From assembly GCA_965215845.1 (NCBI GenBank), contig CBDCEL010000002.1, positions 22,954-86,953 of the forward strand: a DNA stretch of 64,000 bases, read 5' to 3'. The position numbers and the translations under genes were made by a program. The notes beneath the pieces are model-generated. The model was not told where the DNA came from. It saw nothing but the letters and a program-made list of their open reading frames with translations, and searched no databases. The stretch comes from Aurantibacter sp. GTDB lineage: Bacteria > Bacteroidota > Bacteroidia > Flavobacteriales > Flavobacteriaceae. This document shows, piece after piece, positions 5,725 to 52,222 of the stretch; within the stretch, counting starts at the first letter, position 1; every line of letters starts with the position of its first letter.

Positions 5725-6639
5725 TTAAAATATGGATAAACCCGATTGGGTCGTTAAACTTTCCAGGGCGGCCATGCCCAATTTTGAGTTGCCTTTTTCA
5801 TTGAGGCCGGGTGACCAGGTGGCAACACAGAATTTTTCAGGTAACAGGGCCACAATTCCACCGCCGACCCCACTCTTTCCGGGCAGGCCTACTTCGAATG
5901 CAAATTCCCCGGCCTCATCATAAAACCCGCATGTAAGCATGAGGGCATTTATTCTTTTTATCTGGCCTAGGGTCAAATATTTTTTCCCCCTGCTGCACCT
6001 TCCCCGATTTATGAAGAGAAAGAAGGTCTTGCTCAATTGTGAACAACTCATACGCAGGGAGCATTGATGAAAGTAGAAATCTAAGACCTCTTCCACATCA
6101 TTTTTCAAATTGCCATATGACTTGAGCAAATTGGCCGCTGCATAGTTCTTAAAACCGGTTGCCCTTTCAGATCGGGCCACCTGCACATCATAATCGATCG
6201 ATTTGTCGCCTGCCAATTCTTGAACGTACGACAGAAATTGTTTTTTGCTATTTTTCAGTTCGGTCACCAGAACGTCGGCGACTACAATCGCCCCGGCATT
6301 GATCAGTGGATTCCTGGGGATACCGCTCTCTTGCTCCAACAGCGACAAATGATTGAAAGGGTCACCCGAGGGTTCGACATGCACCCGTTCCCATAGGGCC
6401 TCACCGACAAGGTCAAGTGCCATGGAAAGTGACAGCACCTTTGATATACTTTGTATGGAAAAAGGTTCTGCGAAGTCACCAACGGCGTATTCTTTTTGGT
6501 CGATATCAATAAGATGAATTCCGAACTTGTTACAGTCTACTTGTGCCAATTGAGGTATATACGACGCGACCTCACCTTTATTCGGTTCATTTTTGAGATA
6601 CATGTAAACCGATTCGATAATGTGTTGAAAATCATACAT
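5725..6639 (-). CDS. glsA: Glutaminase A
   Basis: FSIQSISKVLSLSMAL serine-lysine active-site motif and LPGKSGVGGGIVA near the C-terminus. Confidence 0.9.
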   Translation of the reverse strand: MYDFQHIIESVYMYLKNEPNKGEVASYIPQLAQVDCNKFGIHLIDIDQKEYAVGDFAEPFSIQSISKVLSLSMALDLVGEALWERVHVEPSGDPFNHLSLLEQESGIPRNPLINAGAIVVADVLVTELKNSKKQFLSYVQELAGDKSIDYDVQVARSERATGFKNYAAANLLKSYGNLKNDVEEVLDFYFHQCSLRMSCSQLSKTFFLFINRGRCSRGKKYLTLGQIKRINALMLTCGFYDEAGEFAFEVGLPGKSGVGGGIVALLPEKFCVATWSPGLNEKGNSKLGMAALESLTTQSGLSIF

Positions 6640-34524: not shown

Positions 34525-36776
34525 ATGAAAAATTCTTCCAGAATGCGGTTTCCGTATGTCCAGTTTGACCGATTCTGTATCCGCACTCCATTATTTCCTG
34601 TCGAATTTTTCAAGAAGTTGACTTCCGACAAGGAAATTCACGATGAACAACTAATGGAAAAGATTAATAATCCAGTTATCCAAGAAGCACTTTTCTTGGC
34701 TTCACCGGATCTCTATTTCCAAATCGGTTAGATGGTGCAAAGGTGAAATCAAGAGTGTGGCAAAAAAAAATAGGATTAAACTCTCACTATTAAAATATTT
34801 GACCAGAATGGCCACTCGTTGCACACCCTTTGGGCTGTTCGCTGGTTGCTCAGCGGGAAATTTTGCATCCAGTAGCTCATTAGAAGTCCCCCCACCGGAA
34901 TATTATAAAAGACAAACACGGTACGATATGCATTTTTTGGTATCGTTTTCAAGTTACCTGTCGAATAAAAAGAAGATTAAGGATCAAATCAAGTTTTATC
35001 CAAATTCGACTATTTATAAAATTGGTAAGAGGTATCGCTATGTTGAATACACCTACGTGGAAAAAAGAAGACAACACAGTTTGGAATCTGTTGTCCATTC
35101 TCCCTACTTGGAGAAAATTCTTAAAATATCCAATAAAGGAGCAACAGTAGAAACCCTTGTTAAAAAGATGACAGAGCTTGGAATTGATAAACCGGAGGCA
35201 TTAAGATTCATAAGCGAACTAATCTCCAACCAAATATTGATTGGTGATCTTGAACCTTCTGTGACGGGCCAGGACTCCCTAGAAGAACTTCGATTGAAAC
35301 TATCGGAGTTGGATAATACCGAGGAGCAGTTGGTACTTGTTAAGGGAATGCAATTGAGACTGGATGTAATCGATCAACAATTGGGCAATCGAATAAATAA
35401 ATACCTATCAATTAAAGAATTGTTTTCGTCATTGGGAATACCCTACGAATTAAAATATTTATTCCAAACTGACCTTTATACTTCCTTAAGGGGAGAAAAA
35501 TCTTGGGTATTCCATCTTAAAGAAAGTAAAACTGGGAATGGCCTTCCTGAACAAAATTTCGACTTTGACAAAAAATCAGAACCTCGAACGTTTCAAGGAC
35601 TCATTCCATAGAAGATACGAAGGTCAAAAGATACCACTTTTACAAGTTTTGGATGTTGAAAGCGGAATTGGTTACGTTCAAAATCCCAACAATTTAGTGA
35701 CCACCCCTTTTTTGGATGATATCGATTATGTAGGTGAAAATATGTCTAGAGATACCTTGGAAACGAGTTGGTCGTCTTTTCACAGGGTACTTCACAAAAA
35801 GTTGTATGAAACAATTTCAATCAATGCTGAAGAAATCAAATTGACTGACCGCGATTTTCCAAGTTTGGAATACGATTGGCTCGATGCCCCAGAGACGATT
35901 TCCGTGATGTTCGAGGCCATCATTGAGAAAGGTCAGGAAAAGATAGTTATGGATTATTGTGGACCTTGGGCAGCAAAATTACTGGGTAGGTTTTGTTATG
36001 GTGATGACGGAGTGAAGAAAATGGTAAATGAAATCGTCGCTACGGAAAAAGAATTATTGCCGGACAAAGTACTTGCTGAAATTGTGCATCTACCCGAATC
36101 CCGAACAGGTAATATATTACGCAGACCAAGCTTAAGAGCTTACGAAATACCATACTTGGGCAAATCGAATCTTGCCCGAGAAAATCAAATTTCTCTAACG
36201 GATATTTTAGTCGCTGTTGAACAGGGTAACGTAAAACTTTATTCAAAAAAAATTGAAAAAGAAATAATCCCATGTTTAACGAACGCCCACAACTACACCC
36301 ACAATGCTCTCCCGATTTATCAGTTTTTATGTGACTTACAATATCAGAATAGAAGGAATTATTCTTTTAATTGGGGTAATCTTTCCTCACAATTTAGATA
36401 TCTTCCTAGGGTGACCTACAAGGATGTCATTCTTTCAAAAGCAATATGGAACCTCGAAAAAAAGGATGTTGAAAATATTCTCAATTTTCATAAAAAGGGT
36501 ACATTGACAATCCAAAAAATAAGTTCTTGGCGTATTAGTTTGAAACTTCCAAAACTCATGCAACTGGTAGAAAGAGACAATACCTTATTGATAAATTTTG
36601 AAAATTTGTCCTCTTCACAAATGCTTTTTGACCAGATTAAGAATGCTGACAATTTTCGACTGGAAGAATTTTTATTCAATAATGAGTGTTTGGTGAGGAG
36701 GGGCGAAAACGGTTATTGCAATCAATTTGTTGTTGCTTTTCATAAAGAGCAACCTGAACCAGACGGTAAGATATGA
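34525..36776 (+). CDS. Lanthipeptide/thiopeptide-type dehydratase, N-terminal (glutamylation) domain protein (LanB-N); two apparent frameshifts (about 34725-34730 and the A5 run at 35496-35500)
   Basis: Three colinear ORFs. Hallmark motifs are FCIRTPLFP, ALFLASPDLY, LKYLTRMATRCTPFGLFAG, FKDSFHRRYEGQKIPLLQVLDVESGIGY and EIVHLPESRTGNILRRP. Confidence 0.8.
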
Positions 36777-37627
36777 AGCGCAAATTCATTTTAGGAGATG
36801 AATGGTTATATTACAAGGTATATTGCGGACCCAGCTCGGCCGATTTAATTCTTCAAGATGTCATTTTACCATTAACCAGAAACCTCCAAAATGATAATCA
36901 AATCAAACTTTGGTTTTTTATACGCTACCAAGACCCAGAACCACATATACGACTAAGACTGAAGTTGACCAAGTTGGCCCATCTGGGAGATGCCGTAGCA
37001 ATGTTCAAACATTATATTTCACCTTTTCTAATTAGCAATTTGGTATGGTCCGTTCAAATTGATACCTACGTTCGCGAACTTGAAAGGTATGGATCAAGCA
37101 CAATAGAACCTGCAGAACAAATTTTTTTCTGCGACAGTGACTTAGTTGCCAATACTATCCCATTAATTGAGGATGAAGAATTCTATTTTCTATTTGTTTT
37201 GAAATGTATCGATTCGTTTCTGAATCAATTTCAACTAAAAGAAGATGAAAAATGGAAATTTTACGAACAAAACGCCCTCGCATTTAAACATGAATTCAAT
37301 GTCGGCAAATTAACTTTAAAGAGCTTGTCCAAAAAGTACAACGTGCTCAAGGACAGGTTGGAAAGAATCCTATTTCATAATTTATTGAAAGATTATGGTC
37401 CATTGCAAGAATTATTGAATAAAAGAAACAAGGCTATTGACCATTCCGCCAAGAAGATAATATCTCTGAGGAACGAGAATAAGTTAGAAGTAAACTTCTC
37501 TGATCTCTTAGGAAGTTATGTCCACATGTTTTTTAATAGGGCATTTCGAGATAGACAACGATTTTACGAAATGGTGGGATATGACTCTCTTCAAATGTGT
37601 ACCAGAAGAAATTATAAACAAAATTAA
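36773..37627 (+). CDS. Lanthipeptide/thiopeptide-type dehydratase C-terminal (elimination) domain protein (LanB-C / SpaB_C-like)
   Basis: DEWLYYKVYCGP...IKLWFFIRYQDPEPHIRLRLKL is the typical opening of this domain. Its start overlaps the previous stop (ATGA). Confidence 0.8.
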   Translation: MKRKFILGDEWLYYKVYCGPSSADLILQDVILPLTRNLQNDNQIKLWFFIRYQDPEPHIRLRLKLTKLAHLGDAVAMFKHYISPFLISNLVWSVQIDTYVRELERYGSSTIEPAEQIFFCDSDLVANTIPLIEDEEFYFLFVLKCIDSFLNQFQLKEDEKWKFYEQNALAFKHEFNVGKLTLKSLSKKYNVLKDRLERILFHNLLKDYGPLQELLNKRNKAIDHSAKKIISLRNENKLEVNFSDLLGSYVHMFFNRAFRDRQRFYEMVGYDSLQMCTRRNYKQN

Positions 37628-40248: not shown

Positions 40249-41268
40249 ATGTACATCGCGATCACACCCCAGAAAATTGGACCGACCTATTCGAATAGCG
40301 TAGCGGATTATGTTGCCTATCTCGAAAAGGAAAACGAGGGACTTGAACCAGGTGACCAAGAGCATTTTTTTAACCAGACCGAGGATCGAATTGCTCCCGA
40401 TACCGTCATTTCAGAAATCGATGCCAATACGGCAAAGCTCAAAAAAACCGAACCCAAATTCTATTCCATAATGGTCAGCCCCAGCCAACGGGAACTTAAA
40501 AAAATCGCCGATAATCCAGAGGCCTTAAGAGCATATACCCGTGAACTGATGAAGGAATATGCAAAGTCTTTTTATCGCGATAAGCCCGTGACGGTAGACC
40601 AGATAAAATACTTTGCCAAATTGGAACATGAACGCACCTATCGTGGATTTGAAAAAGAGGTTCTGGAAAATGCTCCCTACCGAAAACGAATTGCCAAACT
40701 GGAAAACGATATCCGCAAAGTCAGTCGTGGGGAACTGGAGGGGAGCATCGAAAAACTGCAACTGGAAATCAAAAAACTTAGGGAAAATGCCCCACACAAA
40801 ATCAATGGACAAATAATCGTTGCGGGGATGAAAAAGGAGGGCGACCAATCCCATATCCATATCATCGTCAGCCGCAAGGACGTGACCAACACCTTTAGTC
40901 TTTCCCCCGGATCAAAGTACAGGGCCTCCGAAGTGGAGATGCGCGGCAAAAAGGTGCAACGCGGTTTTCATCGTGATCGGTTCTATGAAAAATCGGAACA
41001 GGTCTTTGACAAGCTCTTTGGCTACGACCGGAATTTTGCGGAAACCTACAAGGCCAAAAAGACCTTGGTCAAAGACCCCATCATGTTTCGGATGCTCTTG
41101 GGCAACCTACCATCTAGCGAGAAAGCCTTGGCATTAAAGCTGCTTTCAAAATCCGGCATGCGCATTCCCTCGATCCCGACCAATAAAGTACAGTTGGCCC
41201 TAAAGGTTTTCCATCGCTTGCGAAGGGGAATGAAAAAGGCCATGGAAGCAGGGTCGATAGGTATCTAA
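40249..41268 (+). CDS. Relaxase-like mobilization protein (Bacteroidetes MobB/BtgB type)
   Basis: N-terminal Tyr-containing region (SNSVADYVAYLEKEN) and a histidine motif GDQSHIHIIVSRKD. Lies between the MobA-like gene and the coupling protein. Confidence 0.65.
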   Translation: MYIAITPQKIGPTYSNSVADYVAYLEKENEGLEPGDQEHFFNQTEDRIAPDTVISEIDANTAKLKKTEPKFYSIMVSPSQRELKKIADNPEALRAYTRELMKEYAKSFYRDKPVTVDQIKYFAKLEHERTYRGFEKEVLENAPYRKRIAKLENDIRKVSRGELEGSIEKLQLEIKKLRENAPHKINGQIIVAGMKKEGDQSHIHIIVSRKDVTNTFSLSPGSKYRASEVEMRGKKVQRGFHRDRFYEKSEQVFDKLFGYDRNFAETYKAKKTLVKDPIMFRMLLGNLPSSEKALALKLLSKSGMRIPSIPTNKVQLALKVFHRLRRGMKKAMEAGSIGI

Positions 41269-41345
41269 ACAAGGATTATGGAGCAATTGAACTATATAGT
41301 CGTAATCTGGGTCTTGTTTTTGGGAAGCGGTTTTGAGCTTGGCCC

Positions 41346-42875
41346 TTGTCCGCTTGTTTAAAATCCGGTTTTTATATAAATATGTTCTGGATAGCCTTGG
41401 GTTTGGCCTGGGTAGGGTTTAAAACCGGAAATACCCAACAGTTTGTAATGATCTTATTGGTCGTTGGACTGCCATTGTTTTTTATAAACATCCTTTGGTT
41501 CGTCTACTTTCCAAAAGAAGGCGACAATGCGATTATAAAGCGTTACGCCGTTCACTTGAAAGTCTCCAAAGGCGAGGTGCTTCTGAAAAATATCCGTAGG
41601 GGCATTGCCGTTATCGGTGCTGCCGGAAGCGGTAAGACCGAAAGTGTCGTCCATCCATTGTTGAAGCATTTCAACCAATGGAACTTCAGCGGGGTCATTT
41701 ATGATTACAAGGACTTTGAGATTACCGAAATGGCCTACCCGCTCTTTAGCAAGGGCGATATTCCCTTCCAGATCATTTCGTTCGATACGGTTCATGCCAA
41801 GGTCAACCCCATAGCCCCAAGATACCTGCCCGATGAGGAGAGTGTCAATGAAGTCTCCCGTGTTCTCGTGGAAAACCTTTTGGAACAAAGGGACAATCAA
41901 ATGAATGCCACGACCCGGTTCTTTAATGATGTGGTCGAAGGATTGATCGGGGGGATGATATGGCGGTTGAAAACGGATTTCAAGGATGCCTGCACCTTGC
42001 CCCATTTGATAGCCCTGTATCAACAACTCGATACCAGGGGCTTGATCAAGTTTCTTTCCGCGAACACGACTTCTAAGGCCATGGCCGATGCCTTTATCAA
42101 CGGGGTAGGATCGGAGCGACAGACCGCCGGGGTCAAAAGTACCTTGGCCAATGCCTTTAAAAAGATAAGCACACAGCGCATCTTTATGGTACTGTCCGAA
42201 GATGAGATCGACCTGAACATTAACCATCCCGATAGTTTAAAGGTAGTCTCCGTGGTCAACAATCCAAGAATCGAGACTTCCTTGTCCCCGATAATCGCAA
42301 CGATCCTGCATACGATTACCAAACAGATGAGCGTGCGCCGCCGAAACCCTTCCTTTCTGTTGATGGAGGAGGCCGCGACTTTACGCTTGTTGAACATGCA
42401 CCGTATTCCAGCTACATTGCGGAGTTATGACATTGCTACGGTCTATGTGCTACAAGATAAAATTCAAAACGATATGATGTACGGACCTATGGCGAGCAAG
42501 GCAATTCTGGGCAATCTCTCCTATCAGTTTTTTGGGAAGGCCAATGACCCCGATACGGCCAAATACTACGAACGTTTTTTCGAGATCGTGAAGAAGGAGA
42601 CCAAAAGTGTGAACAAAGGGTATAATCTAAATTTCGACACGCGAGTGACGAAAGGGGAGCGGGAGGTGGCCAAGACCAGGGCCGATGTGTTTTATGGATT
42701 GCCACAAGGAAAATTTATGGTCTTGGCGGATGGAAGGGATAAGAAAGTACAGTTTAAAACTCCAAAAATCATTAGGCAATTGCCACCCTCGAAACGAAAT
42801 TCAAAGAAAGAACTTCAGGAGAATTTTGAGCGGATCCATCGGGAGGTAAAAGGGTTGTTGAAAAGCCAAACCTGA
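41346..42875 (+). CDS. Type IV secretion coupling protein (TraG/VirD4 family; CTnDOT MobC-like)
   Basis: N-terminal TM helices and Walker A GAAGSGKTES. A short ATG ORF at 41278 (MEQLNYIVVIWVLFLGSGFELGP...) in another frame may be the true N-terminus, split by one more frameshift. Confidence 0.8.
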   Translation: MSACLKSGFYINMFWIALGLAWVGFKTGNTQQFVMILLVVGLPLFFINILWFVYFPKEGDNAIIKRYAVHLKVSKGEVLLKNIRRGIAVIGAAGSGKTESVVHPLLKHFNQWNFSGVIYDYKDFEITEMAYPLFSKGDIPFQIISFDTVHAKVNPIAPRYLPDEESVNEVSRVLVENLLEQRDNQMNATTRFFNDVVEGLIGGMIWRLKTDFKDACTLPHLIALYQQLDTRGLIKFLSANTTSKAMADAFINGVGSERQTAGVKSTLANAFKKISTQRIFMVLSEDEIDLNINHPDSLKVVSVVNNPRIETSLSPIIATILHTITKQMSVRRRNPSFLLMEEAATLRLLNMHRIPATLRSYDIATVYVLQDKIQNDMMYGPMASKAILGNLSYQFFGKANDPDTAKYYERFFEIVKKETKSVNKGYNLNFDTRVTKGEREVAKTRADVFYGLPQGKFMVLADGRDKKVQFKTPKIIRQLPPSKRNSKKELQENFERIHREVKGLLKSQT

Positions 42876-42919: not shown

Positions 42920-44605
42920 CTAATCGACATATTCAAATTCATTGAGTTTTTCGTTCCATTTCAAATCATAAATATCCCATTTTTGGCCGGGACTTCGCTC
43001 TTCTTCCAGTTTTTGGGCAATGATTACATGCTCACCATTTGTCCTGACCGTAATCATACCATATTTAGCGACGTTGCTGTCCCGTAATTTTTCCATTTCC
43101 TCGATCTTGGCCTCAATGTCCTTTTTGACTGTCAAGGCTTTCAGTTCCTCTTCCAGCTTTTTCAACCTCTCGTAAAACTTGATCGGGTATGAAAACTCAA
43201 AAGTGCTTCTCGCAAGCTCGGTACTAAAGATCAAAGGCCTGATCCCCCTTCCCGATTTGCCGTAGGCACCAAGGGCATCCGGCCTGGGATGGGCATGTGA
43301 TTCCTTGTCCCCGCTGGAGATGATCGTGGCTATGGGATTAATGGCCCTTAGAAAGGAATCAAGGACATCGGCCGCGCCATGGTGACAGGCCTTGGCGATA
43401 TCCGACTGAAACTTTCCCCGTGTTTTGGAAATAATGACGTCGAGCAGTTTTTCCGATTCCTCGAGAAGTTGTTCGAGTTCTTTTCTTTTGTTACTGCTCA
43501 ACTGGCCCGAAAGCTTCACCTTGGTTTTACGAATGGTCTCTTCAAGAGAACTTAAAGTTGTCTCGATCTGGGAATAATGCTTTGCGAGGTAGTCCTGAGA
43601 TTTGGTGTTGAGATCGCCCCCTAGGAGCATTTTCAAGTTTTTATACCTGAGCATGAAAACGATGGAATGACCATTTTTGGTTTCCCCTTCACTGCCAAGT
43701 TTAACAAGACAGTCCCTGGTTTTTCCCTGAAAAGTAACTTTCTCGGTAATGGGCCCCAGGATTTCCAAACTTAGTTCATTTGGCGCCTTGAAATGGTCCA
43801 AATTGGTTTTGGAGATATCAAGAAATTGGAATTTTACGCTTTTGTTATTGGTCCGGGCCGCTCGAAGTGTTTTAATGTATAATTTATCATGCCTCGGATT
43901 TTTTGGCGGAGGGTTACTTTTTATTAAATCGTGCATTTCCTTATTGGTGAGCACCGTATCCCATAAGTGAAAGTGTTTCTTGCTATCGGCAGGCACTTTT
44001 CTGCCCAGATCATTGAACCAGGTTTTTTTATCGGCATCTTTGAACGGCCTTTCCACAATTCCATTGTGGCAGATATTCTTTATGCTAAGTTTTTTGTTGG
44101 AAAATATATTGTGGAAGCCATAATAATGGTCCAGGTCCGGATGTGAAATTACCGCGTAGTCGATTTCAAAAGGTTTTTTTACGTTATTCGTAGAGCTGGT
44201 CGCCCCATCGACCCCGGCCACGATTCTATTTCGAAGGTTGTATCTCCAATTGATAAAACGGGCCATATTGTCCGCACCTTTGCCATCAAACCCCACGCCG
44301 GCACCGGCATCTATCAAGATCACCTCGTCATCAGGTGTCACGATATGGCACCCATCGCCCTGCCCGATGTCGACAAAATTGACCTCGAGTATTCTCTTGT
44401 TGCTGAGCCATTCCTTTTTTAACCACCCGTTGTCGTTTCGTGAACGCACCTCGACCCAATCGCCTTGCTTTTTCCCGGTGCATTTCGCATAATCCCCGAG
44501 AATCAAATGGTTGATGGCATTTTTTGATGTGGTCATTTTTGGTGCTATCCTCAAGACGACATCCCGTTGGGTCACAAAACAAGGTAACTTTAAATTCAAG
44601 GCCAT
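42920..44605 (-). CDS. SH3-like domain + ComEC-type MBL-fold metallo-hydrolase with a coiled-coil insert (561 aa)
   Basis: GDWVEVRSRNDNGWLKKEWL (SH3-like). VNFVDIGQGDGCHIVTPDDEVILIDAG, VISHPDLDHYYG, LLGGDL and ACHHGAAD are ComEC/Rec2-type MBL motifs. Confidence 0.7.
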   Translation of the reverse strand: MALNLKLPCFVTQRDVVLRIAPKMTTSKNAINHLILGDYAKCTGKKQGDWVEVRSRNDNGWLKKEWLSNKRILEVNFVDIGQGDGCHIVTPDDEVILIDAGAGVGFDGKGADNMARFINWRYNLRNRIVAGVDGATSSTNNVKKPFEIDYAVISHPDLDHYYGFHNIFSNKKLSIKNICHNGIVERPFKDADKKTWFNDLGRKVPADSKKHFHLWDTVLTNKEMHDLIKSNPPPKNPRHDKLYIKTLRAARTNNKSVKFQFLDISKTNLDHFKAPNELSLEILGPITEKVTFQGKTRDCLVKLGSEGETKNGHSIVFMLRYKNLKMLLGGDLNTKSQDYLAKHYSQIETTLSSLEETIRKTKVKLSGQLSSNKRKELEQLLEESEKLLDVIISKTRGKFQSDIAKACHHGAADVLDSFLRAINPIATIISSGDKESHAHPRPDALGAYGKSGRGIRPLIFSTELARSTFEFSYPIKFYERLKKLEEELKALTVKKDIEAKIEEMEKLRDSNVAKYGMITVRTNGEHVIIAQKLEEERSPGQKWDIYDLKWNEKLNEFEYVD

Positions 44606-44886: not shown

Positions 44887-45321
44887 TTATTCTTCTAGTT
44901 CTAATATATTTTTTGATAAAATAGAAAATGCGTGAACGATTTTTGTCCTATGCGTAAATCTGGTGTACTTCTCTCCTTTCAGATATTCTAATATATCAGC
45001 AGACCATAATTCCAATTCTCCATTCTTAATATTAAAATGAAAATCGTGTGCAAGATTATTTCTTAGTTTATTTACTTTTTTGAGAGAGGAAACGATGAAT
45101 TTTTGTTTTTCAATCTCCTTAAATCTTATACTCTCAAACGCTTTAATTTTTCTATAAAATGAATGATCTTCGGAATTCTTTACTTCGCATCTGTTTAACG
45201 ATGTCTCTAAAACAGTTTCAAGTAACAAATGTCCTTTAAGTAATATTAGTTCTAGATCAGTTTTTGAATCTAAATGTCCCCATACTGCCCATTCAAATAA
45301 AAAATCAATTTTCTCTCCCAA
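44887..45321 (-). CDS. Small HEPN-motif protein (144 aa, DUF4145-like)
   Basis: Rx4H motif in VNKLRNNLAHDF; predicted all-helical; 18 nt after the preceding gene. Confidence 0.6.
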   Translation of the reverse strand: MGEKIDFLFEWAVWGHLDSKTDLELILLKGHLLLETVLETSLNRCEVKNSEDHSFYRKIKAFESIRFKEIEKQKFIVSSLKKVNKLRNNLAHDFHFNIKNGELELWSADILEYLKGEKYTRFTHRTKIVHAFSILSKNILELEE

Positions 45322-45339
45322 TTCTTTTACGGCAACTGT

Positions 45340-46032
45340 TTAATTACATTTTTTTATAAAATCGTGTCTAAATTTCATCCACTCAAAAGCCGCTTTTTTG
45401 AAAGTTCTTGAGTATAGCTCTTTGGAAATTACTTGTTCCAAATACAATTCAATTGTAGTTGTGAATTCGCGAACATATTTGGTCAAGTTAATATAATCAG
45501 CTTCCTCATTACTTCTTACAATTAGTATCCTATTTGCTTTTTTGTCTAATGATGATTGTGCAACTTTATAATAATGGAAATTATTGTTTTTATCAATGTA
45601 GCTTGTTGTATGCGAAGCTATTTTATTTCTCAATTCAATCGCATCCGTTTTTTTAAGTTGTTCCCGAATTCTCTTTTGATTTTGAAAGTTAAATAATCGG
45701 ACTAAATCTGTGATTACGCCAACCTGCAAATAACAAGCATTTAAAACGCCATATAGTCTTAAATACATTTCTCCTTGTCTATTTTCACTAACATGCAAGC
45801 CGTTTTCCAAAAATTCATTAATAGCATATTGAGCATCTTCCATTTGGTCGATACAAGCTCGGAATAAATCATGATCATAAAGATTTTGAAATCTCAACTT
45901 TTTTGTCAATTGTTTTATTTGTTCCTCCTCTGTTGGATAGGTTTTGACGTTTGTATACCTTAAAATTCCGAGTAGGATTTCGCAGTAAATTTCAACTTTT
46001 GATATTTGGCTTAAATATTCCTCGTCTGTCAT
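45340..46032 (-). CDS. HEPN-motif protein (230 aa)
   Basis: Rx5H motif in AIELRNKIASHT, preceded by a helical LYGVLNACYLQVGVITDLVRL segment; 29 nt after the preceding gene. Confidence 0.55.
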   Translation of the reverse strand: MTDEEYLSQISKVEIYCEILLGILRYTNVKTYPTEEEQIKQLTKKLRFQNLYDHDLFRACIDQMEDAQYAINEFLENGLHVSENRQGEMYLRLYGVLNACYLQVGVITDLVRLFNFQNQKRIREQLKKTDAIELRNKIASHTTSYIDKNNNFHYYKVAQSSLDKKANRILIVRSNEEADYINLTKYVREFTTTIELYLEQVISKELYSRTFKKAAFEWMKFRHDFIKKCN

Positions 46033-46061
46033 TGGTCGTTCGTCAAATTGTAACTGACTTG

Positions 46062-46949
46062 TTATTTTATAAATTTATTTACAGTCATTGGTAAAAAGAT
46101 TTCTCTTTCATTTTCTTCTAACTTTTGGCCGATTTTACAGTCGATTGTTACAAAGAAGTTTCTGTCACCGAATCTTGCTACTAGTCTTTTGTCATTTCGC
46201 CTTAGACTTAACATCTCAAATGCGTTAGCAGGAATTATACCCTTAAGTTGTTTAAATACATTTTCATCAAAGTCAAAAGTCACTACATATGTTTCTTCAT
46301 TCACAATCAAACCTCCTGAAATAGAAAACTGATCAGGATCTAATTGTGTTATTTCCGTTATTGGAATATCTGGAAATATTAAGTTTTTAAAGCTTTCAAA
46401 ACCCAGCCTTTTAAGATGCAATCCTAAATCTTTTGCGAGCTTATTATAGTCTACCGTAAACACTTTATTAGGAGCTAGTAAGTCTTTAAGCGGGTCCCAA
46501 AATCTAGGGATACTAATTAATGGAAAATGAAGCAAAGGTTCGGGTTTTTGTATATCATATAGTACAAACTCTTTTCCGTTGCAAAGTGCAAAAAAATTCA
46601 CTCTCACCTCACTATGAATTGCGTATGAGTATGCTTGCTCAACGTGTTTAGATTTAATAATTTCTTCATTTGGTGATTTTGCGTCAAGAATCCAGGCAGC
46701 TTTTCCATTCACTTCAAACAAATAGTCTGGTATTATATATATGCTTTTACGTTTCGAGCCTATCGAAACAAAAGGGTGAATTAACTTTCTACCCCTTATT
46801 ATTTGATTAGGCTTGTCTGCCGAATATCCAAGTCCGCGTATTATTGGGATTATGATTTCCTCTCTGACAGAGTCTTCCTGAAATTCAGGATTTTCGAGAT
46901 TATCAAAATTAAATCCTTCGAGGATATTGAATAGTTTTTCTGATGCCAT
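46062..46949 (-). CDS. HsdR_N-type PD-(D/E)xK nuclease-fold protein with an unknown C-terminal half (295 aa)
   Basis: EEIIIPIIRGLGY...IPDYLFEVNGKAAWILDAKSP...HVEQAYSYA carries the PD...(D/E)xK signature of the type I restriction R-subunit N-terminal domain family. Confidence 0.65.
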   Translation of the reverse strand: MASEKLFNILEGFNFDNLENPEFQEDSVREEIIIPIIRGLGYSADKPNQIIRGRKLIHPFVSIGSKRKSIYIIPDYLFEVNGKAAWILDAKSPNEEIIKSKHVEQAYSYAIHSEVRVNFFALCNGKEFVLYDIQKPEPLLHFPLISIPRFWDPLKDLLAPNKVFTVDYNKLAKDLGLHLKRLGFESFKNLIFPDIPITEITQLDPDQFSISGGLIVNEETYVVTFDFDENVFKQLKGIIPANAFEMLSLRRNDKRLVARFGDRNFFVTIDCKIGQKLEENEREIFLPMTVNKFIK

Positions 46950-47059: not shown

Positions 47060-47962
47060 TTACCGCCATATATCTTCATATATCTGAGTGTATTCATCCA
47101 ACTCAATTACTTCAAATCCTACTGAATTCAAAAAGAATTTTTGTCCATCTGAATTCCTTGGTGAACTTTTCTTAATAAACCAACCATTGTGTTTTCTATT
47201 TGGAAACCTTCTGAAATATTTCGCTCTTTCAATCAATAGCCATCTAAGAAAAACCTCTGTTTCGTTCAAACCTAAGCCCACTATTACAAGAGATTTATTG
47301 AATATAATATGTAACCAAGTTTTATATCCTGGCCAAGCTTCTTGGTTTTTCCCTTCAAAATTTATGTTCTCTGGCTTCTTGTGAATAAGTCTTCTTGCTC
47401 TTTCCACATTGCCCATATATTGTGAAAGACCAAGTTTAATACTTCTGTGATATCTTGCCATTCCATTTATATACCAAACTCCGAATCCTGCGGTAGGATA
47501 ATTTAAAGTATAATTTGAATAATAATTTGACCATGGATAAAAATCGGTGAAATTTGTTCCCTCCATCCTATTGAACTCTAAATTCATTGATTTAGGAATC
47601 AATTTATCAAAATTTGTTGTTAGAATTTGCGAGTTCATTTCATGTATTCGTTCTAAAATCAGATTTTGCTTCAGGTTTGCCTCCCATTCTTTCATCCTTC
47701 GTTGCACATCCTTTTGCAGTAAAGAGCTAAATTTTTTATCTGATGCATTTTGTATTTCTAAAGCATCGTAAAACTCAGTAAAAGATATTCCATGCGGAAT
47801 TGTACTTTGGGTATTAAATGAATGGGTCTGCCATAAATCCAATAATAAGTCATTCCATGATACTCCATCATTCTCGTAATATAGATTTATTCCATTTCCA
47901 AGAATGAACGCAAGATCGTGATGATTTCTATTAAATATTCTTATTACCTGTTCGACACTCAT
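47060..47962 (-). CDS. SIR2-like (SIR2_2-type) protein, stand-alone (300 aa)
   Basis: AFILGNGINLY...SWNDLL (GAGxS..W..LL analogue), ILTTNFDKLI (TTNYD box), and LVIVGLGLNETEVFLRWLL (GYS..D analogue). Confidence 0.65.
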   Translation of the reverse strand: MSVEQVIRIFNRNHHDLAFILGNGINLYYENDGVSWNDLLLDLWQTHSFNTQSTIPHGISFTEFYDALEIQNASDKKFSSLLQKDVQRRMKEWEANLKQNLILERIHEMNSQILTTNFDKLIPKSMNLEFNRMEGTNFTDFYPWSNYYSNYTLNYPTAGFGVWYINGMARYHRSIKLGLSQYMGNVERARRLIHKKPENINFEGKNQEAWPGYKTWLHIIFNKSLVIVGLGLNETEVFLRWLLIERAKYFRRFPNRKHNGWFIKKSSPRNSDGQKFFLNSVGFEVIELDEYTQIYEDIWR

Positions 47963-48036: not shown

Positions 48037-50571
48037 TCAGTCATCATCTATTGTTACTTGTAGTATTTTATTTCTTGTTTTTTCAATATCCATTATAATT
48101 ATTTCAGAAAGATTTAGCTGTTCAAAATTTGTTTCCAATATCCATTTTTTGCAATCGGCTTTTGACATTTTGGTTGAAGGGGTATACTCTGAAATGGTAA
48201 TAACAGAATTTCTGCTCAATCCTAATGATAATAGAGAGAGTTGAGATTCTTGGGAAACCCCAAATTCTAACCATAGATTTAAATCTGGTATTCCATCTAA
48301 CAAATCATTCCGGTTTATCTCTTTTAAATAAAATCTTAGTATATCAATATAGCAGCTCGATTCTTTGGCGAACCTGAATCTCGCAAAATTCTCTACCATT
48401 TCCATAATATTTCTGCATACACTATCTACTTTATAATATGCGCCTTTGGATTTATAATTGTTAATAGAACTAGTAATTATATAAGATAGTGGTTTACCTG
48501 ACATCCAATGGATCAGCACTATCGCCCGTGTAGGATTCATTTGAGGGAAAAAAGATGCCAATGTTTTACCGATTCTACCTATAAATTTCACATATTCGTC
48601 ATATGCATTTTCGTCTTCTGGATAGGCAGGAATTAAACTTTCAATCTCCGTTTTTTTCTCTTCAAAATAGTCTAGTAGTTCTTGCTGTGCAATTGGAGAA
48701 ATTCCTGGGTTTTTTAATATGATTTCATCAGGAATTTTAATTATTGGTTTTAATTCCTTAAAAAGACTTTTAAGGCTTATATGAAATTGGGTTTGCCCCA
48801 ACTTATTTTCTAAGAAACGAGAATAGTAATAACTAAATGCAAATTCATATTCTTGATTTCCTTCCGCTTCACTTCTTGGACTACCCTCTTGAATATATCT
48901 AATAAAGTCATCACTTTTGTTTTCTTCAAGTTCATTAAGTGCTTTAACAATTTTTTGTTTTTTCTTATCTGGACTTGGAGGAAAACCCCATTCTTTAGGT
49001 TGTATACAAACTATATTTCCACTAAACTCTTTTCCCCAACGCCCAGCTCTTCCTGCTAAGTTCCAAAAATCATTTTCATTTAATGGTTTATTCTTGCCGC
49101 GCGTTGGTTTTCTAATAAAAACTGCTGTGGCTGGAAGATTAACTCCTTCTAGAAGGGTCGATGTACATATTAGGTATTTTATTTTGTTTAACTTGAATAA
49201 TCTTTCGATTTCTTGTCGTATTAGCAAGGGCATATTTCCATAGTGAAATGCTATTTTCCGATTTAAAACTTTACCAAGTATATAATCATTATGAATTGTG
49301 TTTTTAACAAGTTTAATCAGCTCCTTTAATTCTTTGCACGGATTATCATCTTCGGAAAGTTCATAAACTATGTTCGCATATTTTTCGGACTCAGCTGCAC
49401 CATTGGCATAAATTAAGTTTCCAAATTTGTTTCTGGAGATGGCTTTTGATATAAGCGCTAACTTTCTAGATTCTGGTGTAGGTCTATCCGAAAGTTCAAC
49501 TATTCCAACTTCAATTGGTTTTTGCTTTGTAATTAGATTGATATACCATTTTGTGGGCTTTCTTCTTACTTGAGTTACGTATAACAAATTTTGATTGACT
49601 GCTACAAATTCTGTATTAATAGCCTTGTTTTTTTTTCCAAGGGATAAATTTTCAAATAGCACCTCAGGGTTTGACGTAAAAGGACTTGAAAAGTATACTT
49701 TCACATCTGGATTTAAATCAATTACATCTTCGATTTTTCTTTGTAGAAGAATACCTCTATTATTATTGTCAATCTTATGTGCTTCATCTATAAGAAGGAA
49801 ATCAATTCTCCTGTCCGTACTTTGCATTAAATACCAGTGCAATCTTTCTTGAGTAAATACAAAAAGGTTGGACTGATCTGAAATCTCATTTTGTAACGGA
49901 ACTGTAGTCAGGTTAATATCTGAAATTTCGTTCTGTATCATTAATTCCGTCAAATCTTCTTCAACTTGACTTATGAGCGCCCTTGTAGGTACTATATATA
50001 CGATGTTCTTATTTCGACTTTTTAGTTCTTCAATTAATAACTGATAAAGGATAAATGATTTACCTGCCGAAGTTGGAGCGGAAATACTAATTGCAGAATT
50101 GGCTCTTGACGCATCATATACCTCTTTTTGAAACCGATTTAATGAAACGATTGAATCATTTATGATAATAGAATTTCTTACCCTAGTTTGATTATTCATT
50201 AGTTTGAAAGGAAGAGGTAAATTTGAAGCATAGTCTTCACTAAGCAAATTCCTTTTAATGGCAAGTCTAATTGAAATTTGATTTGTCAAGGTTTCAAGAA
50301 TTATTGCTGCTCCAGATTTTTGTGTGTCAGTAGTGTTGCAAATCAAACATGTTTGAGCAATCCTAAGAGAAGCATCAAGGTGTGTGCTATTAGATGATTG
50401 GCATAAAACACTTCCAATACTTAATACATTATTCCAATTTATTTCTTTTAATAAATCGTCTCTGTTGATATCCCAAATCAGATTTGGAATTGTATCACCA
50501 ACTGAGATCTTGAGTATTGCTTCATATTGTTTTTGAAAGCTATTCAGATTATATAATTTGTCAAAAATCAT
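48037..50571 (-). CDS. SF2 DEAH-box helicase (HamB-like, 844 aa)
   Basis: Motif I APTSAGKSF, motif II LLIDEAHKI, motif VI NLAGRAGRWG. Its ATG overlaps the upstream stop (ATGA). Confidence 0.85.
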   Translation of the reverse strand: MIFDKLYNLNSFQKQYEAILKISVGDTIPNLIWDINRDDLLKEINWNNVLSIGSVLCQSSNSTHLDASLRIAQTCLICNTTDTQKSGAAIILETLTNQISIRLAIKRNLLSEDYASNLPLPFKLMNNQTRVRNSIIINDSIVSLNRFQKEVYDASRANSAISISAPTSAGKSFILYQLLIEELKSRNKNIVYIVPTRALISQVEEDLTELMIQNEISDINLTTVPLQNEISDQSNLFVFTQERLHWYLMQSTDRRIDFLLIDEAHKIDNNNRGILLQRKIEDVIDLNPDVKVYFSSPFTSNPEVLFENLSLGKKNKAINTEFVAVNQNLLYVTQVRRKPTKWYINLITKQKPIEVGIVELSDRPTPESRKLALISKAISRNKFGNLIYANGAAESEKYANIVYELSEDDNPCKELKELIKLVKNTIHNDYILGKVLNRKIAFHYGNMPLLIRQEIERLFKLNKIKYLICTSTLLEGVNLPATAVFIRKPTRGKNKPLNENDFWNLAGRAGRWGKEFSGNIVCIQPKEWGFPPSPDKKKQKIVKALNELEENKSDDFIRYIQEGSPRSEAEGNQEYEFAFSYYYSRFLENKLGQTQFHISLKSLFKELKPIIKIPDEIILKNPGISPIAQQELLDYFEEKKTEIESLIPAYPEDENAYDEYVKFIGRIGKTLASFFPQMNPTRAIVLIHWMSGKPLSYIITSSINNYKSKGAYYKVDSVCRNIMEMVENFARFRFAKESSCYIDILRFYLKEINRNDLLDGIPDLNLWLEFGVSQESQLSLLSLGLSRNSVITISEYTPSTKMSKADCKKWILETNFEQLNLSEIIIMDIEKTRNKILQVTIDDD

Positions 50572-51530
50572 TTCCCCAGCATCTTTAAGAAATGATCTCT
50601 AAATTCTTGCACAGATGGAAATGGAATAATGAATACGTGAATTTCGAATTTTTCCAAGCTAACATGTGATTTAATGTGCTTACCGGTGGTTTTTAACCAA
50701 TTTGCAATTTTATCCCGAAATGATGTTGCTAGGTCTGATGTCACCTTTTCTAATGGTTGACTTGGATATTCGTCATCGTCAAACCCTACGAAACAAACAC
50801 CTTTGTAATTTAGCTTGTTGGAAAGGTCATCATCTAGGTCGAAATATCTAACTAATATTTTTTCCAAATCCGGATTGTTCGTGTTGTCGAGTAGATTCGT
50901 TGAGATTAGATGTAGGTCTCTTGTTTGTGTACTGTCATGTCCTTTAGCATCTAAAAGGAATCCTTGAAGACTTTCGAAACAATGTTTTAATGCATTATTT
51001 GCAGTTTGCTCCATTTTAGATTCCCCCCAGTAAAGGGATAAGCTATCATCTTCCTCTTCATATTTTACATGAATTCCATCTGCACCTTGGTAATGTAGTT
51101 TTCCAGATGTTTTCAGAGTCATTTTGCTAATAAGCTGGGGCAACTTTAGTATTTCTTGTACCAGTATATAAAGTAGCATTTCTCCAAATTCACCTGTCTT
51201 CTCTAGGTCAACAAAAAGCTCCTTTGCTCTTCTTTCAAGTTCTAATATTTTACTTGACGAACCTGTTCTTTCCAAGAATCCTCTGGCTTCGTCTTGATGC
51301 TTTTTGGGTAATGAATAATCAACTATTTTTGTAAGAACAAATTCAATAAGGTCTTTTGTCCTGGGCTTTCCATCAGCATCTAATTTTAAACAATAACAAT
51401 AGCCTTTTGCCTCAGTATCCTCAATTTCAAGTTCTACTTCTATTTTCTCAAGTCGGGAAAATATTTGACCTTCACCATCAACGAGAAGGAGCTTAATTGC
51501 GTCATGTATCCATTTACTTCTATCTTTCAA
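50568..51530 (-). CDS. DUF1837-like protein (HamA-like, 320 aa)
   Basis: KTGEFGEMLLYILV...KTSGKLHYQGADGIHVKY...LYWGESKM gives a D...ExK nuclease-like core resembling DUF1837. Translationally coupled to the helicase. Confidence 0.6.
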   Translation of the reverse strand: MKDRSKWIHDAIKLLLVDGEGQIFSRLEKIEVELEIEDTEAKGYCYCLKLDADGKPRTKDLIEFVLTKIVDYSLPKKHQDEARGFLERTGSSSKILELERRAKELFVDLEKTGEFGEMLLYILVQEILKLPQLISKMTLKTSGKLHYQGADGIHVKYEEEDDSLSLYWGESKMEQTANNALKHCFESLQGFLLDAKGHDSTQTRDLHLISTNLLDNTNNPDLEKILVRYFDLDDDLSNKLNYKGVCFVGFDDDEYPSQPLEKVTSDLATSFRDKIANWLKTTGKHIKSHVSLEKFEIHVFIIPFPSVQEFRDHFLKMLGK

Positions 51531-51614: not shown

Positions 51615-52222
51615 TCATCTTTTATCGGGTCTCAACTTTCCTGAAAGCCCATTATACCTCAAATATTTGTAGTAGGTTGCTCTTGAAATATCCAACCGCC
51701 CACAAATCTCAGAAACCGGCAATTTACCCTCTTTAAAGTAATCCTTACAAGATACGGCTATCTGTTGATTTTTCTTACTAATACCTTTTAGAGCTCCTAA
51801 AACTTGTCCACGACGGCGTACAGATTCTAAGCCCGCCTTGGTCGGTTCAATAATGATGTCCCGTTCCAATTGGGCCAGAGCAGCGAAAATGTTGATGATA
51901 AACTCCGATTGAGAGGATTTTTTGGTGGTATCAATAAAAGACTCTATAATACTTCTAAATTTTACACCTTTTTCATCAAGTTCAGACATTAACTTGGTAA
52001 AATGAATTAGGCTTCTAACCAGCCTGTCCAATTTCCAAACTACTATGGTATCACCCTCCCAGAAATAATCTAAAAGTTTACTCAGATTTTTTCGCTCTTC
52101 TTTGGTGCTCGAAACCTTGTCCGTATAAATGTTGTTTTCTTTGATTCCTTCTTTTAGAAGGCATCAATTTGAAGATCTAAATTCTGTTCGTTGGTACTTA
52201 CTCGCGCATATCCAAATATCAT
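51615..52222 (-). CDS. Serine recombinase (resolvase/invertase family); apparent frameshift near 52150-52165
   Basis: Hand-translated N-terminus MIFGYARVSTNEQNLDLQIDA (catalytic Ser motif). The next frame continues LKEGIKENNIYTDKVSSTKEERKNLSKLLDYFWEGDTIVVWKLDRLVRSL into the 138-aa track ORF, which ends in an HTH (ISRATYYKYL). Confidence 0.8.

Follow-up and report, generated by a model that had tools for sequence, protein, structure and literature searches.

Three adjacent nuclease and HEPN-motif genes in a flavobacterial defence island: probably stacked single-gene units, not one system

Described relatives and the locus in Aurantibacter

HepS ('HEPN Solo') is an abortive-infection (Abi) protein of prophage Gifsy-1 in Salmonella Typhimurium (PDB 9oij/9oik; PMC13043305). 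It works by itself, as one HEPN protein without a conserved partner gene; it rests as a tetramer, is activated by siphovirus tail-tip proteins and cuts tRNA anticodon loops (PMC13043305). HEPN proteins are also part of 'multi-pronged' systems linked to restriction-modification (R-M), in which DUF4145 is fused to a restriction endonuclease (REase) or AbiU2 occurs in R-M operons (Anantharaman et al. 2013, PMC3710099). In this study, we analysed a stretch of 64,000 nucleotides (nt), here called the window, from Aurantibacter sp. (Flavobacteriaceae; assembly GCA_965215845.1, contig CBDCEL010000002.1, positions 22,954 to 86,953), in which a gene for a predicted PD-(D/E)xK nuclease of 295 amino acids (aa) is followed by two small genes coding for proteins of 230 and 144 aa with Rx4-6H motifs. 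A sequence-only reading of the window had proposed that this triad forms a heteromeric nuclease/RNase defence module. We favour, with a probability of about 0.72, the explanation that three independently acquired or mobile single-gene units, and not one system, lie stacked in a low-GC defence island, next to a Hachimoji system.

All three genes are located on the minus strand, in the order 295-aa gene (46062-46949, ATG start), 230-aa gene (45340-46032, ATG start) and 144-aa gene (44887-45321, TTG start). The TTG start is backed by N-terminal conservation among homologues. The first two genes are separated by 29 nt (46033-46061), which contain the boundary of the mobile 230-aa unit in DNA alignments, and the last two by 18 nt (45322-45339), a junction within a pair that was seen as a unit in four other places. 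The tight same-strand packing noticed by the sequence-only reading was reproduced in the list of open reading frames (ORFs), with exact coordinates and both gaps, and the motifs it quoted are all present and conserved family-wide, and are not chance strings.

The locus fits known kinds, namely the HEPN-REase theme and the solo HEPN Abi proteins, and does not represent a new architecture. As in the HEPN-REase systems, an REase-fold gene adjoins genes with Rx4-6H motifs; unlike in those systems, there is no fusion and the three families show no conserved operonic linkage. The 144-aa protein resembles HepS as a small single-domain HEPN protein with a canonical R-x4-H motif, and its family likewise has no conserved partner gene, the exception being the sublineage of the window, where it is paired with the 230-aa gene. 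However, the two proteins share only ~15% identity and differ in length (144 aa versus 212 aa for the HepS chain). Furthermore, the 144-aa gene is not prophage-borne here, and its family is mostly restricted to Bacteroidota, with no member in IMG/VR viral contigs or in PLSDB. A tetrameric state, sensing of tail-tip proteins and cleavage of anticodon loops are known for HepS alone (PMC13043305). The 295-aa protein shares the D...D-x-K core, the QxxxY element and matches to HSDR_N and to the PADLOC IIG model with HsdR N-terminal and type IIG (MmeI-like) domains, but has no helicase/translocase, methyltransferase or specificity domain. It resembles type IV-like (Mrr/Mcr-type) enzymes in being a solitary nuclease without a cognate methyltransferase. 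Unlike in all of these, it carries a C-terminal domain of ~150 aa without detectable relative, and its family often lies outside obvious defence islands. Hachimoji (HamA/HamB) adjoins the triad on the same strand, yet it is a self-contained two-gene system.

Distribution of the three gene families

Linkage was assessed in 156 loci fetched with the three families, in which relatives were tallied by tblastn and by family hidden Markov models (HMMs) on six-frame translations. Members of the 230-aa family were present in 65 loci and those of the 144-aa family in 85; the 295-aa family was represented by 12 loci, taken from assemblies, plasmids and viral contigs. The two small-gene families overlapped in six loci, which correspond to four distinct places, and no locus combined the 295-aa family with either of them: neither small gene was present in any of its 12 contexts. 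In the genome scan of the 230-aa family, a 295-aa or 144-aa relative within 6 kb was found in 0 of 51 loci. In the metagenome scan of the 144-aa family, only the two closest loci (81-83% identical) out of 80 had a 230-aa relative upstream, and a 295-aa relative was present in none of the 80. An HMM search of 51 ORFs upstream of the 144-aa family for cryptic 230-aa relatives returned just the six known pairs. Co-conservation in other genomes had been named as a check by the sequence-only reading; the three families were not found together in the 156 loci and the three-gene arrangement was seen in the window only, and by this check the proposed module is refuted.

The closest relatives of each gene keep different company. 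The 295-aa relative with 87% identity lies after a NERD/UvrD helicase gene and before an unrelated 150-aa gene, and no conserved partner gene of the 295-aa family was found across the contexts examined. The 230-aa relatives with 87-89% identity lie behind an FRG-domain gene, with no 144-aa gene after them. The genes immediately upstream are diverse for both small genes: 37 loci of the 230-aa family have 25 families in this position, and the 39 neighbours clustered for the 144-aa family make up 30 unrelated families. On the DNA level, homology among loci of the 230-aa family starts ~20 nt before the ATG, with unrelated genes further upstream, and extends past the stop codon only where a 144-aa gene is next. 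Because of this non-linkage in 156 loci, the different contexts of the closest relatives, the DNA boundary ~20 nt before the start of the 230-aa gene and the diverse neighbours, we regard the three genes as independent units. The solo reading is further supported because HepS, which ranks first for the 144-aa protein in both sequence and fold searches, provides a solo precedent, and because copies of the 295-aa gene on plasmids appear to be monocistronic. Each of the three genes has its own distribution, and the fact that plausible nuclease genes are packed tightly on one strand of a defence island is, taken alone, no sign of a multi-gene system.

The start of the 230-aa gene is preceded by a short conserved leader, GCTATAATTTGA(C/A)AAATG, in three loci (L001, ~5978-6000; L013; L014), and its CTATAAT core is also present in L011. 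In the window, the leader (46033-46061, minus strand) reads GTTACAATTTGACGAACGACCAATG. It may serve as a minimal promoter of the Bacteroidota type, or as a translation signal, and move together with the gene.

HamB-like helicases were found in 4 of the 156 loci at differing positions, without consistent co-occurrence with the three genes. A look-alike arrangement in Owenweeksia (294, 225 and 142 aa) was rejected, as both of its small genes code for proteins with hydrophobic, signal-peptide-like N-termini that bear no resemblance to the window proteins.

The three proteins

The 144-aa window protein has no Pfam match, and no curated profile of the HEPN clan was reached at threshold. However, its relatives gave sub-threshold Pfam matches to HepT-like (7), HEPN_MAE_28990 (5), RiboL-PSP-HEPN (5), Csm6_HEPN (3) and DUF4145 (2), and also to Cthe_2314, and the recurrent weak matches of the family are nearly all to HEPN-clan models. 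Among 43 homologues, R87, N88 and H92 of the motif (RNxxAH; KLRNNLAHD in the window, Rx4H) are invariant, together with K29, G30, H31 and E35. The best match of the family profile against PDB is HepS (9oij, E=0.031), with the motif region aligned. The AF2 model (pLDDT 84) is all-helical, and HepS 9oij/9oik occupies Foldseek ranks 1-4 with a probability of 0.98-1.0, TMq of 0.53-0.57 and weak E-values of 0.06-0.22; the 'HEPN domain protein' 4nqf follows at rank 35. The weak HEPN-clan matches, the HepS profile match and the HepS fold match bear out the earlier placement of this protein in the HEPN superfamily, for which we consider the case good but not overwhelming. The model supports a distant structural relationship to HepS; an identity of ~15% is too low to place it firmly in the HepS family proper. 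With its relatives, the protein belongs to a clade of small solo HEPN proteins in Bacteroidota that resemble HepS. By analogy with HepS, the 144-aa protein would rest as an inactive homo-oligomer, a phage-derived cue would switch it on, and its composite Rx4H sites would then cut RNA, for example tRNA, leading to abortive infection.

The 295-aa protein matches Pfam HSDR_N over residues 72-136, marginally (1.1e-5, 25.8 bits against a gathering threshold (GA) of 25.1), and the N-terminal PADLOC model of type IIG REases (REase_MTase_IIG) over residues 18-135 (9e-9). Invariant in 22 homologues are P74-D75-Y76 (IPDY), D89-A90-K91 (LDAK), Q105 and Y109. The QxxxY element goes with HsdR-type nuclease domains. 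The two profile matches and the invariant catalytic residues uphold the sequence-only assignment, and the protein is, as judged by its sequence, a PD-(D/E)xK nuclease of the HsdR_N or type IIG N-terminal type. Its nuclease domain comprises residues ~18-136 and is followed by a conserved C-terminal domain (residues ~150-295). This second half is as conserved as the first and contains KDLGLHLKRLGF, TFDF and EENxxEIF; profile searches found no relative of it in Pfam or PDB, in agreement with the earlier description of a C-terminus of unknown kind. Features of a type I R-M system were absent: the protein has no ATPase (SF2 translocase) domain, and no HsdM or HsdS partner was found among the ORFs scanned at 40.2-56.4 kb. 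Most plausibly, the 295-aa protein would act alone as a type IV-like (modification- or structure-dependent) DNA nuclease that needs no methyltransferase partner, in which the C-terminal domain would select the target.

This solitary HsdR_N-type nuclease is very widespread. The family comprises >1220 clusters, with full-length members 60-70% identical across several Bacteroidota orders, and was found on 5 viral contigs and 5 plasmids (IMG/VR, PLSDB). More distant full-length relatives are located on plasmids of Nostoc and Acidithiobacillus, where the nearest annotated gene on the same strand is >240 nt off and the downstream gene lies on the opposite strand, so that the plasmid copies appear to be monocistronic. 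In two of the 12 contexts, the gene stands right behind a UvrD-type helicase-nuclease: in L144 (3014-5903), a NERD+UvrD protein of 669 aa overlaps it by 23 nt, and in L157 (1806-5888), a UvrD+PDDEXK_1 protein of 1054 aa is separated from it by 30 nt. An occasional partnership with such helicase-nucleases is possible. In L158, another SIR2_2-like gene (391 aa) is located directly upstream of the 295-family gene, which gives two such cases with the window, although this gene has no BLAST similarity to the SIR2_2-like orphan of the window. The likeness between the order SIR2_2 - 295-family - 559-aa gene in L158 and the SIR2-like, 295-aa and 561-aa metallo-beta-lactamase (MBL) genes of the window was dismissed as coincidence, as neither the SIR2-like proteins nor the 559- and 561-aa proteins are similar by BLAST.

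The family of the 230-aa protein is large, with 85 close clusters and 870 clusters at 50% identity (E<=1e-3), and is spread over Bacteroidota, Proteobacteria, Planctomycetota, Nitrospirota, Dadabacteria and others. It was not found in IMG/VR viral contigs and has three distant matches in PLSDB. In 126 relatives, down to ~20% identity, G95, R135 and H141 are the sole invariant columns, and D66, A70, Y90, L91, L93, Y94, L97 and Q103 are nearly invariant. R135 and H141 are the R and H of ELRNKIASH (Rx5H) in the window protein; the family also carries a GExYLRLYGxLN motif. No Pfam match, including to HEPN models, was obtained with the protein or with sets of 40, 26 and 126 relatives, and it has no NCBIfam, PADLOC or PHROGs assignment. 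Profile searches with three alignments found no sequence match in PDB. The AF2 model (pLDDT 88, pTM 0.86) has an alpha-helical core with a beta insertion (residues 155-181); Foldseek against PDB and BFVD returned no HEPN structure and no convincing match (TM<0.4). By hhalign, the 230-aa and 144-aa families share 26 columns around the motif at a probability of 1.2%, and no homology beyond it. Two 230-aa homologues (P0015, P0032) are named 'HEPN AbiU2-like' in UniRef, a label that Pfam did not reproduce at E<=10. Of the earlier claim that this is a HEPN protein, the invariance of the Rx5H motif therefore stands, whereas profiles, PDB and fold comparison provide no link to HEPN. The HEPN reading is plausible from the motif, and the protein is a candidate RNase. 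Most likely, it would be a metal-independent RNase or toxin that works alone.

Genes of the 230-aa family were also observed inside strings of housekeeping genes on the same strand, at distances of 12-93 nt from their neighbours. In five Psychrobacter species, the gene lies between trpB (PALP) and trpA (L046, L047, L052, L053 and L055, ~5845-6590). In two metagenome-assembled genomes (MAGs) of anaerobes, from Anaerohalosphaeraceae (L045, 3526-4257) and Pirellulales (L049, 5866-6600), it lies between lipB and lipA. It is also found directly behind a methionine aminopeptidase gene (Nonlabens) and behind a Sua5/YciO/YrdC gene (L030, 6001-6708; L042, 5758-6468). This placement is unusual for a defence gene and suggests a cassette that rides on the transcription of host operons. 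Going further, we tentatively propose, at well below even odds, that this is a large and so far undescribed family of Rx5H enzymes, either new, highly divergent HEPN-like RNases or convergent ones, encoded by a minimal single-gene cassette that is wedged behind same-strand genes, including inside housekeeping operons. Riding on the host's transcription, the gene would be expressed constitutively, as a solo toxin or Abi sentinel, and in some Flavobacteriia it would have teamed up with a HepS-like HEPN gene. Taken together, the locus yields three families that are each a single-gene defence or toxin candidate. Of most interest is the 230-aa family, which is large, has no Pfam match, keeps its Rx5H invariant and tends to insert into operons; current concepts would remain unchanged unless it represents a new RNase fold or a new operon-hitchhiking element.

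Alternative explanations and the surrounding island

Several points weigh against the view that the three genes are independent. The 230+144 adjacency recurs outside the window in L008/L009, L011/L012, L064 and L065, with gaps of 3-17 nt, and the divergence of the two proteins is roughly parallel (87/83/81/73% identity for the 230-aa protein versus 83/81/82/61% for the 144-aa protein), which is compatible with a functional pair in the sublineage of the window. Furthermore, the triad is probably co-transcribed in the window because of its short gaps (18-29 nt), co-orientation and the lack of an internal terminator-like site, and co-expression could allow cooperation. A scan for sigma-70 promoters and terminators found no promoter-like or terminator-like site between the three genes, although it is uninformative for Bacteroidota sequence. 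Co-transcription is, on the other hand, what dense stacking in islands produces. Linkage of HEPN and REase genes is a known theme, so that a functional link is not implausible a priori (PMC3710099). The sample of 295-aa contexts is small, with 12 loci against >1220 clusters. Finally, several 295-aa and 230-aa relatives are located among housekeeping genes, and we infer the defence role of all three genes, as well as their substrates and triggers.

The pair is the basis of the strongest alternative, in which the 230-aa and 144-aa genes form a two-gene unit, either a hetero-oligomeric RNase or a sensor-effector pair, next to an unrelated 295-aa nuclease. The two genes do travel together in one Flavobacteriia sublineage: besides the recurrent adjacency (gaps of 3-18 nt with the window included) and the roughly parallel divergence, DNA homology spans the 230/144 junction in the window and L009, and both proteins have an invariant Rx4-6H motif. 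However, the other family is absent from 59 of the 65 fetched 230-family loci and from 79 of the 85 fetched 144-family loci. Unpaired 230-aa proteins are up to 87-89% identical to the window copy (L001, L013, L014), and unpaired 144-aa proteins 63-66% (L066, L071-L074, L081). The families have no detectable homology beyond the motif, and HEPN active sites are normally formed by homodimers, which makes an obligate heteromeric 230/144 RNase unlikely. Since both families are mostly found without the other, cooperation is optional at most. The heterodimer suggested by the sequence-only reading does not hold as a rule, the pair being facultative and seen in four places outside the window, and we consider the two-gene unit an unlikely explanation of the locus.

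Two of the pairs were found in conspicuous surroundings. In L008 (952-7640), the pair is bracketed by three copies of one rve-family insertion sequence transposase and may be carried on a composite transposon; the 230-aa gene as called is N-terminally shortened there (185 aa). In L011 (4629-10123; an ENA scaffold of 1.16 Mb), small same-strand genes surround the pair in the order DUF2971, a 147-aa membrane-like protein, the 230-aa and 143-aa proteins, a 261-aa protein, a 314-aa protein with ELRNLFAHH (Rx4H) and an HNH_4 protein. This stretch has the appearance of solo nuclease or HEPN-like genes packed into a dense array.

Less probable still is that at least one of the genes has no role in defence, with the 295-aa protein as a nuclease of DNA repair or processing and the 230-aa gene as a selfish toxin-like or regulatory gene, both being passengers of the island. 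The unusual conservation of the 295-aa family across Bacteroidota orders is consistent with this, as is a family member in Owenweeksia that adjoins DNA ligase and lipoprotein genes. The same applies to the trpB-trpA and lipB-lipA insertions of the 230-aa family and to the absence of both small-gene families from the viral contig scan. Against it, many contexts are defence islands. The window itself has Hachimoji, SIR2-like and MBL-fold genes; L144 has SMODS, a NERD-helicase, HNH and type I R-M; L003 has TIR, caspase-like and DUF4062 genes, a helicase and a methylase; L010 has a reverse transcriptase and PRTase-CE; and L158 has SIR2_2, HigB and a relaxase. Moreover, residues of catalytic type are invariant, which suggests that the enzymes are active. 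A three-gene heteromeric nuclease/RNase module of the PD-(D/E)xK protein and two HEPN proteins, finally, is very improbable in spite of the tight packing in the window and the frequent fusion or operonic association of HEPN with REase-fold nucleases (PMC3710099), as the 295-aa family has neither small gene in 156 loci, the arrangement was seen in the window only and no profile or fold match links the 230-aa protein to HEPN.

GC content is 30-36% across ~45-57 kb, compared to 42-47% in the surroundings. Directly upstream and on the same strand are HamB (48037-50571; PADLOC HamB 1e-272) and HamA (50568-51530; Pfam HamA PF08878 6e-53, PADLOC HamA 3e-106), which by these matches represent a complete Hachimoji system outside the unit discussed here. 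Placed between HamB and the 295-aa gene is the SIR2_2-like orphan of 300 aa (47060-47962, minus strand), also outside the unit, which reaches 22.4 bits with SIR2_2 (below the GA of 24.5) and has no PADLOC or NCBIfam assignment. Downstream of the triad, after a gap of 281 nt, an MBL-fold protein of 561 aa is encoded (42920-44605, minus strand). With HamA/HamB directly upstream and the SIR2_2-like and MBL-fold genes flanking, the defence island of the sequence-only reading is supported, and, in line with that reading, no methyltransferase or specificity subunit (N6_Mtase, Methylase_S) was seen among the ORFs scanned at ~40.2-56.4 kb. Flanking the low-GC block are two genes at 40249-42875, for a DUF5712 protein and a type IV coupling protein, and the gene of a truncated resolvase of 138 aa (51615-52031, minus strand). 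These three genes give partial support to the integrative and conjugative element that had been suggested, whereas no full conjugation apparatus or integrase was delimited; a horizontally acquired defence island beside mobilisation genes is supported by GC and gene content.

The 561-aa MBL-fold protein has a long coiled-coil-like insertion. It matches PADLOC LmuA (2.5e-11), PDC-M48B and the ComEC/Rec2 MBL domain weakly and the anti-phage enzyme '6A-MBL' faintly, and may be another single-gene defence candidate of the island. Of the serine-resolvase catalytic domain, the ORF at 51615-52031 covers the C-terminal half alone (model positions 72-144), together with a helix-turn-helix; by these matches, this edge of the low-GC island carries a truncated recombinase. 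Further away in the window (34757-37627, plus strand), a LanB-type lanthipeptide dehydratase is seemingly split over three ORFs: 34757-35611 covers positions 34-272 of Lant_dehydr_N, the overlapping ORF 35538-36776 covers positions 292-646, and 36773-37627 corresponds to Lant_dehydr_C. The split of the N-domain points to a frameshift, a pseudogene or an error in sequencing.

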